Origin: a virus
DNA: 64,000 bases
IMG/VR virus record: IMGVR_UViG_3300046675_000234
Coordinates: 1 to 64,000 of that record
Direction: 5' to 3' (one strand)
Positions 15,965-25,837 of this stretch are shown piece after piece (position 1 is the stretch's first letter; each line of letters opens with the position of its first letter). The notes under the pieces were generated by a model, which was not told the DNA's origin, did no database searches, and saw only the letters and a list, made by a program, of their open reading frames with translations. A program made the translations under genes and the position numbers.

Positions 15965-17167
15965 CTACAGCCCCATCTGGCTCTTGGCGCGGTTGATGGT
16001 GTCGGTGCGCTCCGTCTGCTCGGCGGACGGCCCCGCGCCGGGCGGCTCGTCCATCGGGGAGCCCAGCTCGACGTCCAGGTTGAGCATCTGGGCCATCCTG
16101 GCGTACTCGGTCAGCACCTTGCGCATGACCTGGCCCGCGTCGGCCCGCTGCCCGTTGGCCAGGTCCACCGTGTGCCCGGAGCCCTGGAGCAGCGGCCGGG
16201 CCAGGTCGGTGATGTAGGGCGGTACGCCGAGATCCGCCAGCTTCCGCTTCTCAGCGTCGAATGCCGACACCTCGTACCGGGTCTGGAAGACGGCTAGCTG
16301 GCGCTCGGTCTCGTCGGCGCGGCTGTTGGCGAGGTCGATGGCCATCTGCGCCTCGACGGACAGGCCGGTAACGCCAGCCCCGGCCAGCGTCTCGGCGTCC
16401 ATCCCGGCCTCGATCTCGGCCAGCTCGTCGTCACCGAGCGCGTCGATGAGGTCGGCCAGCTCTTCGTCGGACAGCTCGTCGTCATCGGCGGGAGCGGTGC
16501 CGTTGCCGTTCGGGGCTGGCGGGGCTGACGGGGCCTGCGCTCCGAGCAGCCGGTCCAGGGCAGCGGGGTCCAGGTTGAGCAGGCGGTTCAGGTTGGCCTG
16601 CTGCTGGGCGTTCAGTTCGGGCATGGTCTCCACTTCCTGTCCGGCATAGCTGGAACCGGTGAGGTCGATGACAAGGGACGGCGTATTGGCCGCCTCGACG
16701 GTCTGCCAGGCCCCCAGGCCCGGAATGCGCGGGTCCAGGGTGCCGAGCACATGCTGGATCGCGGCGGGGTAGAACTTGCCGTCCGCCCGCTGGTACTGCT
16801 CCACGATCCGGGCCGACACGCCCAGGTACGGATTCTCGCGCAGGACTGCCTCACCGCGCTCGGTCGGGTCGAGCACCATCCACAGCCCGTCCGGCTCGGC
16901 CTCGAACCCCACGACCGTGCCCCGGTGCCGCTCCGGGTCATTGGTGTGGGTGTTGCCTGCGTCTGCGAGCTGGAAGCTCACCTGGTCGTACGCCTTGTCG
17001 TTGAAGGCGTTCGCCAGTCCCTGGAGGTAGTGCGGGGTGAAGTGCAGGGTGCGGCCCTGGTAACTGATGTCGCCTACCGGCAGCACCCGCTTGCGCCAGA
17101 GCTTGCTGGACATCTCGATCGCGTTGCCCCGGTCGAACGGGGTCAGCAGGGCTGCGAAGGCACCCAT
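15965..17167 (-). CDS. Mu-like prohead protease fused to scaffold
   Basis: NTH..G.V..DGLW..YLGVSA..HVLGTLDPRIPGL protease signature; acidic helical C-terminal half. Confidence 0.85.
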   Translation of the reverse strand: MGAFAALLTPFDRGNAIEMSSKLWRKRVLPVGDISYQGRTLHFTPHYLQGLANAFNDKAYDQVSFQLADAGNTHTNDPERHRGTVVGFEAEPDGLWMVLDPTERGEAVLRENPYLGVSARIVEQYQRADGKFYPAAIQHVLGTLDPRIPGLGAWQTVEAANTPSLVIDLTGSSYAGQEVETMPELNAQQQANLNRLLNLDPAALDRLLGAQAPSAPPAPNGNGTAPADDDELSDEELADLIDALGDDELAEIEAGMDAETLAGAGVTGLSVEAQMAIDLANSRADETERQLAVFQTRYEVSAFDAEKRKLADLGVPPYITDLARPLLQGSGHTVDLANGQRADAGQVMRKVLTEYARMAQMLNLDVELGSPMDEPPGAGPSAEQTERTDTINRAKSQMGL

Positions 17168-17171
17168 CTGG

Positions 17172-24479: not shown

Positions 24480-25837
24480 GGCGGCCCCATGGGGTTGGAG
24501 TAGCCCATCGGCGGGACCGCCGACCCGGCCTGGAACGAGCGGCCGATGCTGCGCGCGATGGCCAGCGCCTTGTTGTGGCTGTGCCCCTTGGCCCGCGCTG
24601 CCCGGTAGATGCGCTGCTGCCGGGCGGCTTCCTTCGCTATGGCCTTCGCCTTGTTGCGGCCCATCCCGGCGGCGTACTTGCCCGCGTCGGCGCGCTCATC
24701 GGCCAGCATCTTCGCCCGGCTGGTGGCCGGGGGCCTGCCCTTCGGGCCGACCGTCTTGGGCTGCGTGCCGTTCTCGAACCTGGCAGCAGCACGCTCGATC
24801 CGCTGGACCAGGCCCGGCCCCTTCTTCTGCCGTGTCTCCAGCGGGAAGCCAGCGCCGCTGGCAGCAACCTCGGCCGCCGACCCGGCGTGCCACGTCCCGC
24901 CGAGCTTGCCCCTGTTCGGCATGCCCGGAAAGTCGCCTATGACCGCGCCGTAGTCTGCGGCACCCCTCCCCGGCCTCACCTTCGCTGCTGCTCTCCTGGA
25001 CGCGAGAGTCCCCTTGAATGCAGCGGTACTGCGATTGGCTCGTTCCACGGCTGCCGTCGCGGCCCGCTGACGCGGAGACACGCTGCCGCCGCCGTCGAGC
25101 CTGATCCAGCCGTGCCTGAAGCGGAACGCCAGCTCCAGGGCATCGAGCTGACTGGCGTGCTTGCTGCCGAGCTTGGCGAACCCCTTGCGCCCGTACTTCT
25201 TGCGCCCGATGTACGCGGCCAGCGCGCCGGGGTTGCGGGCACCGCGCTTGGCCAGCACGCCCTGGAGCTTGGCGAAGTTCTTGCCCGATCCCGGCTTGGC
25301 CCCGGCGAAGGTGGCCAGCTCGATCGCGTGCAGGTGCGTGTCCCAGCTCGCGGCGACGGCAACTGGCGGTGCTGCTCTCATGGCTCTCTCCTGATCCCGG
25401 ACGTCGCGGCGGTGCTGGCCGATGGCGCGGTTGGACCCGTGCACGTCCTCGATGTCCTTGATCAGCAGCAGGTGCCGGTGCGCTTGCTGCATCATCGCCT
25501 TGCCGCGCATGTGCCCGGCATCGTCGTGCACCCCGTGCCGCCGCAGTTGCAGCGGCTGGAGACCGAAGATCGCGGCGTTGACGTGTCGCTGGGCGCTGTG
25601 CGTCCGGCCCGAGTCCAGCTCGCGCGCCGCGTCCTGGAGGTGCTGGTGCACGTCCATCTCGGGGTAGGAGGTGGCCATGTTGGTGGCCAGCTTGCGCAGC
25701 CCGCTGCTGGCGCGGGCCTTCATCTCCCCGGTGGCGATCTTCCGGCTGAAGACGTGCTCGGGCTCAGGTCCCGGCGGCGTGGTCACAGGCGGGGCGTCAA
25801 CGCCGATCGGCCGCTGGTTGTCTGCTGCTGCTGCCAT
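24449..25837 (-). CDS. Basic modular head-region protein
   Basis: ATG at 25837 just after the MuF stop. IELA and LELAFRFRHGW tags. Arg/Lys/Ala-rich. Confidence 0.75.
   Translation of the reverse strand: MAAAADNQRPIGVDAPPVTTPPGPEPEHVFSRKIATGEMKARASSGLRKLATNMATSYPEMDVHQHLQDAARELDSGRTHSAQRHVNAAIFGLQPLQLRRHGVHDDAGHMRGKAMMQQAHRHLLLIKDIEDVHGSNRAIGQHRRDVRDQERAMRAAPPVAVAASWDTHLHAIELATFAGAKPGSGKNFAKLQGVLAKRGARNPGALAAYIGRKKYGRKGFAKLGSKHASQLDALELAFRFRHGWIRLDGGGSVSPRQRAATAAVERANRSTAAFKGTLASRRAAAKVRPGRGAADYGAVIGDFPGMPNRGKLGGTWHAGSAAEVAASGAGFPLETRQKKGPGLVQRIERAAARFENGTQPKTVGPKGRPPATSRAKMLADERADAGKYAAGMGRNKAKAIAKEAARQQRIYRAARAKGHSHNKALAIARSIGRSFQAGSAVPPMGYSNPMGPPPFPAGAQLS

Follow-up and report, generated by a model that had tools for sequence, protein, structure and literature searches.

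We analyzed a window consisting of the first 64 kb of the 81,691-bp IMG/VR virus record IMGVR_UViG_3300046675_000234, an uncultured soil phage known from metagenomes alone, and describe a block of genes within its head module that encodes modular proteins, here called cargo proteins, together with the recurrent two-part peptide tag that these proteins carry. All positions are those of the window, and the features described lie on its minus strand unless stated otherwise. The record ends in direct terminal repeats, with a CheckV completeness of 100% and a G+C content of ~69%. The phage is probably a siphophage of an actinobacterium, because its closest cultured relatives by protein are Streptomyces siphophages. 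No cultured phage was close in DNA, a megablast of 16 kb against INPHARED giving no match.

The head module is of the Mu type and was delimited by gene calls, Pfam, and PHROGs. Its order is a large terminase (28002-29756), a Mu-type portal (26516-28093; PF06074), a short stand-alone MuF-like minor head protein of 225 amino acids (aa) directly after the portal (25842..26519; PF04233, 30.9 bits, cut-off 29.6), the cargo genes, a 400-aa protease/scaffold protein (15965..17167), a 168-aa protein, and the capsid protein (14313-15224; phrog_1650). The 8.7-kb gap between MuF and protease on which an earlier, sequence-only reading had based its proposal of a cargo system measures 8.67 kb from the MuF stop at 25842 to the protease start at 17167, lies in the Mu-type head module slot, and holds five to six genes without family matches. 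Relatives were taken as the 70 IMG/VR loci with a related portal (52-100% identity), and the same gene order was found in most of the 21 mapped in detail, counting those long enough to show the region, as well as in the Streptomyces siphophages Araceli and LazerLemon, in which the 400-aa protein is 45-50% identical. The 8.7-kb stretch encodes modular polyvalent proteins.

A two-part tag in the cargo proteins

The sequence-only reading had noted that a tetrapeptide, [IVLMT][DE][LM][ASG], repeatedly punctuates the cargo proteins and recurs in the protease/scaffold. This pattern was found 12 times in the 2851 aa of cargo (4.2 per 1000 aa; Fisher p = 4e-4) and 5 times in the 400 aa of the protease/scaffold (12.5 per 1000 aa; Fisher p = 1.3e-4), against 20 occurrences in the 19,108 aa of the other 93 predicted proteins (1.05 per 1000 aa). 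Residue shuffles within each protein gave 0.22 expected against 3 observed in the 520-aa cargo protein and 0.63 against 5 in the protease, in agreement with the Fisher counts, and the enrichment is therefore real. Every cargo occurrence listed in that reading is present at the position given there, namely, IELA (25324), LELA (25138), VELA-IELF (~24458), VELA (23990), IELA (23405), TELS (22934), TDLA (22611), MELG (21687), VELA (18646), and VEMA (17699), along with the looser VLDF (20730) and FQFA (~19914); VELA-IELF is read in the -1 frame and precedes the start annotated for the 520-aa open reading frame (ORF).

Alignment of the flanks identified the tetrapeptide as the centre of a longer prefix, I-S-x-Q-phi-phi-[DE]-L-[AG], with a stronger core, [FY]-[ND]-P-x-[EQ]-P-R-D-x-x-G-R-W, starting 0-6 residues after it; within the window, the flanks align as phi-[DE]-L-[AG]-[FW]..[ND]-P-x-[EQ]-x-R-D-x-x-G-R-W. 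The earlier motif is therefore genuine but forms only the middle of a two-part tag, and the RDxxGRW core, the most conserved half of that tag, does not occur in the protease/scaffold. The pattern R[DEG]xxG[RK]W has 6 in-frame copies in the cargo genes and 1 elsewhere in the six-frame translation of the window, in a non-coding frame. Two core variants were also found, ELAFR[FY]RHGWI with two copies in the window and NPAQPR-VGAGAATGGQF with one copy at the 482/520 junction (see below), and the GGQF variant recurs in distant giant proteins such as P0065.

A local hidden Markov model of the tag identified 146 copies in the 70 portal-related loci (independent E < 0.01), all on the gene strand; in the mapped loci, they lie between MuF and the protease, with the exception of one copy in L025 that lies upstream of the MuF domain. 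The consensus of the clade, with the window's own lineage excluded, is I-S-[GAS]-Q-[AV]-[ILV]-[ED]-L-[AG]-[FW] followed by the core, and tags at N-termini keep the full prefix (M-T-x-I-S-E-Q-phi-[DE]-L-A). Orthologues are 13-25% identical in the linker upstream and 42-66% identical over the prefix end and core. Pfam has no family at the tag itself. Two other accounts of the tag were rejected: intein-like self-splicing, as no Cys, Ser, or Thr that could act as a nucleophile is conserved in the tag, and DNA-level recombination repeats, because the DNA of different tags is just 72-87% identical, with perfect matches running over ~10 nt, which is no more than peptide conservation demands.

The four-module polyvalent protein p1248 (18892..22638; PF23802 at 5.8e-35, phrog_2859, and phrog_3842) carries tags at 22555-22617, 21631-21693, 20677-20736, and 19858-19923. 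Its modules are M1 (aa 29-317), which is ParB/Srx-like by motif only (DGHHR at 255); M2 (aa 337-635; window 20734-21630), which is DUF7178 (PF23802) with a glycosylase-like fold; M3 (aa 655-905), of no known family; and M4 (aa 928-1248), a candidate zincin by motif (HETFH at 1041, EEGF at 1069). Each of the four has separate homologues, and p1248 joins at least 2 unrelated domains in one polypeptide. In an AlphaFold model of aa 300-1248, tags 2, 3, and 4 fall in stretches between domains with a predicted local distance difference test (pLDDT) score <50, whereas scores in the domains on either side mostly exceed 80-90, those of M4 being lower (~70-90). The model places domain boundaries at the tags, a check that the sequence-only reading had asked for, and each module is headed by a two-part tag in a low-confidence linker.

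M2 was modeled as all-helical with pLDDT above 90 and matched HhH-GPD DNA glycosylases in VIA-align (Z 9.9 over 173 residues) and the queuine-salvage enzyme DUF2419 (Z 7.6); we take the glycosylase match as a lead only, because M2 is helical. Homologues of M2 are called "glycosylase" in the annotation of some cultured phages. The HETFH and EEGF motifs of M4 are kept in its homologues in L009 and L024; Pfam gave no match to M4, and model confidence is low around the motif. No PDB structure matched the p1248 model in Foldseek at E <= 1e-3. In VIA-align, M2 alone was matched, helical matches to the end of M4 (Z 5-7) being too weak to interpret, and tblastn of p1248 against cultured phages matched the DUF7178 part only.

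Module order differs among the relatives, being M1-M2-M3-M4 here, M2-M1-M3'-M4 in L009 (79%), and X-M1-M4 in L004 (86%), and M3 is a separate gene in L048. BLAST homology ends at module ends, and a tag was identified directly upstream of 45 of the 48 module homologues in relatives, whether the module starts 100 nt or 3 kb into the ORF. The tags are the points at which modules have been reordered, exchanged, separated, or joined in the relatives, and this reordering, together with the separate domains in the model, agrees with the modular, multi-domain proteins proposed earlier. The cargo region as a whole comprises ~11 tag-delimited segments, of which four look like enzyme domains (ParB-like by motif only, DUF7178 glycosylase-like, an alpha/beta domain without family, and the candidate zincin), so that the "dozen or more effectors" suggested by the sequence-only reading were too many.

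The cargo proteins p482 and p520 occupy the other end of the region. Counted from an ATG at 25837, cargo protein p482 (24449..25837) has 462 aa; it had no match in Pfam, PHROG, or NCBIfam. It carries an RHGW-type tag, DALELAFRFRHGWI (25103-25144), and a prefix-only site, HAIELATF (25307-25330), of which AIELA persists in L009 (79%). With its upstream -1-frame extension, p520 spans 612 codons (22638..24476) and carries the tags GSVELAIELFNPAQPRVGAGAATGGQF (24384-24464), GAVELAFNPAQPRDRWGRW (23940-23996), and NAIELAFRYRHGWI (23370-23411) as well as a prefix-only site, MATELSAN (22917-22940). Both the 482- and the 520-aa proteins are mostly basic, rich in Ala, Gly, Lys, and Arg, and without family match; the C-terminal 100 aa of p520 are 83-87% conserved in L004 and L009. 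This C-terminal module (PGLYHVKGMGHTPYEQQIVKALIEKRGM; window 22641-22940; compare L082 4262-4500) resembles by eye, without alignment, the N-terminus of gp9 ("ADP-ribosyltransferase") of Streptomyces phage Araceli, and the same module may sit at opposite cargo ends in the two phages. Araceli and LazerLemon both have a gp9 cargo protein, in which the tag occurs only in its RHGW variant.

Five large proteins had been counted in this region, and their genes are indeed present, but those of 482 and 520 aa are probably joined by a programmed -1 frameshift into a single protein of ~1,066 aa (window 24385-24479). A slippery heptamer, C_CCT_TTC, lies in register at 24473-24479, the zero-frame stop TAG of p482 follows eight codons past it (24449-24451), and the -1 frame, open from 24695 on, contains neither ATG nor GTG nor TTG before 24200. 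Right after the slip site, the -1 frame encodes the tag PGWGSVELAIELFNPAQPR. A hairpin starts ~7 nt downstream (83 nt folded, -38.7 kcal/mol, z -2.0), which gives modest support. The loci L002 and L003, 94.7% identical and from other samples, keep both heptamer and stop and differ by a 3-nt indel and by substitutions that are conservative only when read in the -1 frame; in L009 and L010, a single 1069-codon ORF with another module order was found. The sequence thus holds a heptamer in register, an open and conserved -1 frame, and downstream structure. A sequencing error at the junction was rejected, as independent contigs keep the arrangement.

Two smaller cargo proteins lie toward the protease. 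Cargo protein p293 (18014..18895) carries an internal tag, SQLVELASDAWMHERRGPGGKW (18590-18655), which is retained in its orthologue L009_320 (55% identity). The middle of p293 is helical and rich in Ala, Glu, and Lys. Its C-terminus is hydrophobic, strongly so over the last ~45 residues (AGGAVAGFIAAYVESRLGVPDLIALLTSALPFIIQPIVEFI; window 18014-18150), and may be a membrane-active segment of an ejected protein. Directly after the p293 stop, within the cargo block, we identified an unannotated, very acidic ORF of 41 aa (MSPEERQEVIDILTEALVQAGIDEEEAEDF; 17886-18011). Of the 21 relatives mapped in detail, 8 have the small protein p216 (17172..17822) beside the protease. In the window, p216 includes the prefix-only site RSVEMASS (17682-17705), which L004 preserves as SVEMA and L009 as RVELA. 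The N-terminus of p216 and aa 194-210 of p482 share LA[VK]RGA[GR]NPxxLAA[FY]I, a region that forms a 48-nt DNA repeat of 71% identity (17728-17775 and 25209-25256). Prefix-only sites without a core, AIELA in p482, ATELS in p520, and SVEMA in p216, mark further module borders and are retained in relatives. Searches of all cargo proteins and single modules against Pfam, PHROGs, and NCBIfam gave only DUF7178 and two PHROGs of unknown function.

To cover distant proteins, a profile of 88 distinct tags was searched against 1.84 billion cluster representatives, and 1,334 proteins were matched at E <= 1e-3, 285 of them at E <= 1e-10. The top 150 matches, mostly giant proteins, hold 2-7 tags each at a median spacing of 264 aa, with the first tag <=40 residues from the N-terminus in 86. 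In P0007, P0042, P0055, and P0077, whose sequences were read by eye, MuF or portal plus MuF lies in the same polypeptide; Pfam supports MuF weakly, below cut-off, in P0042 and P0007. Pfam domains in distant tagged proteins include ADP-ribosyltransferase, LigT/2-5-ligase, Acb1, GNAT, and HNH. The tagged protein P0065 (3849 aa) harbors an Acb1 anti-CBASS domain (PF23474, 1.5e-29) along with GNAT and DUF7178-like modules, which directly supports the presence of known counter-defence enzymes among tagged modules. Throughout, the core is nearly constant, and the residues upstream are constant within a protein but differ between lineages, with prefixes ending in ..[DE]LA here and in ..K, ..DA, ..LRAAE, ..[DE]MF, or ..NA elsewhere; the core is universal and the prefix lineage-specific. 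No loci related to P0048 and P0028 were found in IMG/VR, and tblastn of P0055 against cultured phages gave single modules only.

The protease/scaffold and the shared prefix

The 400-aa protein (15965..17167) is identified by fold and orthologues as a prohead protease (aa 21-145) followed by a scaffold-like helical domain. Its 894 homologues are all unnamed and without Pfam domain. An AlphaFold model built on 38 orthologues (39-89% identical) shows a confident beta domain at aa 21-145 and then long helices, and Foldseek matched it to herpesvirus assemblins (E 5e-4) and T4 gp21 (5jbl; E 7e-3); its matches in BFVD are annotated as prohead protease, scaffold, or both. H74, S118, and H139 are invariant in 38 of 38 orthologues and follow the His-Ser-His order of the assemblin fold. 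The "Mu-like protease" of the sequence-only reading holds for the fold and for protein-language-model similarity, with PF10123 clusters as neighbours (score 0.96), but not for family membership, as neither hmmscan of the protein nor a six-frame search of the whole genome matched PF10123 at E up to 10. A phmmer search against PDB sequences gave nothing useful. We read the 400-aa protein as one that acts like Mu gpI/gpZ outside the Pfam family PF10123.

The tetrapeptides IEMS, IDLT, IDLA, VDLA, and VELG reported for this protein are all present, with one more, TDLA. From the N-terminus, the sites are NAIEMSS (aa 16-19; 17105-17125), A-[VI]-E-L-G in 32/38 orthologues; LVIDLTG (aa 167-170; 16655-16675), I-D-L-[ST] in 38/38, directly after the protease domain; MAIDLAN (aa 277; 16325-16345), I-[DE]-L-A-N in 34/38; YITDLAR (aa 320; 16196-16216), T-[ED]-L-A in 38/38; HTVDLAN (aa 334; 16154-16174), V-[DE]-L-[AS]-N in 37/38; and LDVELGS (aa 366; 16058-16078), V-E-L-G-S in 29/38. 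The tag prefix is the same short motif as that conserved, in the form phi-[DE]-L-[AGST], at these six places, and the placement of sites near the N-terminus and directly after the protease domain, noted in the sequence-only reading, is conserved across the orthologues. Model confidence is low around the sites at aa 17 and aa 167.

We built a position-specific scoring matrix of the prefix from the relatives' tag prefixes only and searched the 22,267-aa proteome at a threshold of >= 9 bits. It gave 13 matches against 3.5 +/- 2.0 in shuffles, 7 of them in cargo, 2 in the protease/scaffold, and 4 elsewhere. The sharing of the prefix with the protease/scaffold is significant, yet not exclusive.

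Proposed processing and its alternatives

Proteins injected with phage DNA act before phage gene expression and are therefore a first line against host defences, and they are hard to recognize from sequence. The cargo proteins are very probably capsid cargo; this is the natural reading because of their genome slot, the MuF and portal fusions elsewhere, and their domain types. In the mechanism that we propose, they would be loaded into the procapsid, with the prefix serving as a T4-type capsid targeting sequence that contains a cut site. The prohead protease would recognize the prefix and cut most likely just after the acidic residue, and each cut would release a module that now starts with the core. 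The core would then serve a lineage-independent step, for which our guess is docking to a conserved head component (portal, MuF, or packaged DNA), because the cut would leave the core on the module and the core is lineage-independent. Docked modules would stay in the head and exit with the DNA, the -1 frameshift would set the ratio of p482 alone to the p482-p520 fusion, and the modules (ParB-like, glycosylase-like, zincin, and others) would act at an early stage of infection inside the cell, probably to counter host defences. Taken as a whole, from procapsid loading through cutting of the prefix by the prohead protease and retention of the core to ejection of the modules with the DNA, this proposal seems to us evenly poised.

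Cutting of the prefix by the head protease is a plausible step to draw from these sequences, and several observations favour it. A cut after the acidic residue is suggested because several sites read A-x-E or A-x-D (AVE, AIE, ALE, ATE, AID), like the AXE motif of SPN3US and the related gp21-type motif (PMC7411985). Cutting between QIE and MA-FDP would produce a terminus similar to MA-FNP, with which P0072 and P0147 naturally start. Self-release of the protease from the scaffold would be expected at the invariant site that immediately follows the protease domain, and a lineage-specific prefix next to a universal core is the outcome expected from coevolution with the protease of each lineage. 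The prefix may also be a loading signal, because N-terminal tags keep the anatomy of the T4 capsid targeting sequence.

Other observations weigh against this account. Of the six protease/scaffold sites, four fall within helices or strands predicted for a conserved domain, and their conservation could serve folding rather than cutting. The best matrix match in the proteome, ISTQLIELAE (18.6 bits), lies at aa 470-479 of a 614-aa non-head protein on the plus strand (59593-61437); it is probably due to chance, but with this match and three more outside the head, the prefix alone is no marker of head proteins. The constancy of the prefix within each protein could stem from gene conversion between tags, and the low pLDDT at the tags may partly stem from a shallow alignment. 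L065 (portal identity 63%) and L074 (52%) have no detectable tags between portal and protease, so the tagged cargo block is an optional part of the head module. Our literature search found no virion proteome for this metagenome-only phage or its relatives. As a separate observation on the relatives, L074 also has no detectable MuF.

The alternative that survives best, which we nevertheless consider unlikely, is that the tags are uncut loading or docking peptides, with prefix and core forming one epitope for scaffold, portal, MuF, or inner capsid and the proteins injected whole, like the virion RNA polymerase (vRNAP) of N4. Full prefixes are kept at extreme N-termini, where there is nothing to remove and cutting has no obvious purpose, a pattern that fits binding at least equally well; the copies of the prefix motif in the scaffold domain could belong to a common interaction surface; and N4 vRNAP and some plasmid polyvalent proteins are transferred uncut (PMC5512222). 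Against this alternative, prefix-only sites that lack a core lie at module borders (AIELA, ATELS, SVEMA) and in the protease/scaffold, and a conserved site lies exactly at the protease-scaffold junction, in a stretch of pLDDT <50. Prohead proteases also remove their own flanks, SPN3US gp245 losing a C-terminal propeptide according to the account in PMC7411985, and the A-x-E flavour of the sites fits known specificities of assemblin-fold phage proteases.

Cutting might instead be done by the zincin-like module M4 (HETFH...EEGF) of the cargo itself, as Iyer et al. proposed for polyvalent proteins (PMC5512222). M4 homologues retain HExxH and the downstream Glu, and most complete cargo regions of relatives hold at least 1 HExxH module that could do the processing, a further point against the prohead protease. 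As a general rule this is less likely, because the cargo regions of L070 and L075, complete from MuF to protease and carrying five tags, lack HExxH altogether; in addition, tags occur in genes without a zincin in the same polypeptide (p293, p482/p520), and a zincin would have no reason to cut at the prefix motif common to the protease/scaffold. We judge zincin processing improbable. That the proteins are late, cytoplasmic, and unpackaged, their tags being conserved linkers that favour cassette recombination, would suit the shuffling of modules at tags and the rank of the tag cores as the region's top DNA repeat family, but it is highly improbable given the limited DNA identity between tags noted above, a core peptide kept across 1,334 clusters with visibly different amino-acid composition among the sequences read, and the head-module position and MuF/portal fusions elsewhere that favour packaging.

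Going beyond this phage and its head protease, the core may be a general "cargo label" of tailed phages, placed at or near module N-termini, exposed by a lineage-specific protease site, and docking to a universally conserved head component, by which the module would be retained and later ejected; we offer this as a tentative idea that is somewhat less likely to hold than to fail. If true, the proteins injected by thousands of uncultured phages could be recognized from one short peptide, which could also serve to load foreign proteins into capsids. A header marking packaged modules would turn the question of capsid content into a sequence search, and the profile already picks 1,334 clusters, including ADP-ribosyltransferase, Acb1-like, LigT-like, and GNAT modules. 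Such a header would also explain how effector cassettes are exchanged between phages without loss of loading or processing.

Comparison with known systems

Polyvalent proteins, MuF toxins, T4 capsid targeting sequences, and cleavage of ejection proteins in giant phages are known already, and the junction tag is undescribed in the literature that we searched, comprising full-text searches for the motif and for the processing of polyvalent and MuF cargo. Term searches in PMC5512222 and PMC5576092 found no recurrent junction peptide and no junction or pre-toxin motif, and we found no mention of an RDxxGRW-like core in the portion of PMC7411985 covered.

Polyvalent proteins were described by Iyer, Burroughs, Anand, de Souza, and Aravind in 2017 (PMC5512222). 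The cargo proteins share with them unrelated enzyme domains in one chain, a location among head genes by MuF and portal, a candidate zincin-like module, and presumed packaging and delivery with the DNA. They differ in that each module here has a two-part header whose first half matches prohead protease/scaffold sites; processing by an embedded zincin was proposed there. In addition, the short MuF gene stands apart here, and five or six genes share the cassettes among them. The MuF polymorphic toxins (Jamet et al. 2017, PMC5576092) tie variable effectors to (pro)phage MuF, and the distant P0007, P0042, and P0055 are likewise MuF fusions; unlike those toxins, the MuF of the window (225 aa) is fused to no effector, and no immunity gene is evident.

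In T4, as summarised in PMC7411985, the proteins IPI-III and Alt carry capsid targeting sequences and are cut by gp21. The likeness lies in a leader of ~10-20 aa at the N-terminus that ends in a phi-x-E type site and, on the proposal made here, in an assemblin-fold serine protease that recognizes the leader in the prohead and in cargo injected with the DNA. The T4 leader, as characterised in that summary, is N-terminal only and is discarded, whereas the tag here is also internal, with <=4 per protein in the window and 2-7 in distant proteins, and its conserved 13-residue core would stay on the released module; the tag has no sequence similarity to the T4 leader.

In phiKZ-like phages, to follow PMC7411985 again, a single motif ending in Glu directs the head protease to the capsid protein, to internal ejection proteins, and to sites in the protease itself; in SPN3US, the prohead protease gp245 cuts the ejection proteins gp53, gp54, and gp47 at AXE, which several A-x-E or A-x-D sites here resemble. 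The SPN3US ejection proteins lose N-terminal propeptides of 110-130 aa and are not multi-enzyme chains in that account, and the phage described here, unlike SPN3US, is a mid-sized siphophage with a Mu-type head module. Mu itself offers a final parallel: although the 400-aa protein does not match the profile of PF10123 (Mu-like_Pro), its single gene, which follows those for portal and MuF, encodes a protease at the N-terminal end and a scaffold at the C-terminal end, as in gpI/gpZ of Mu.

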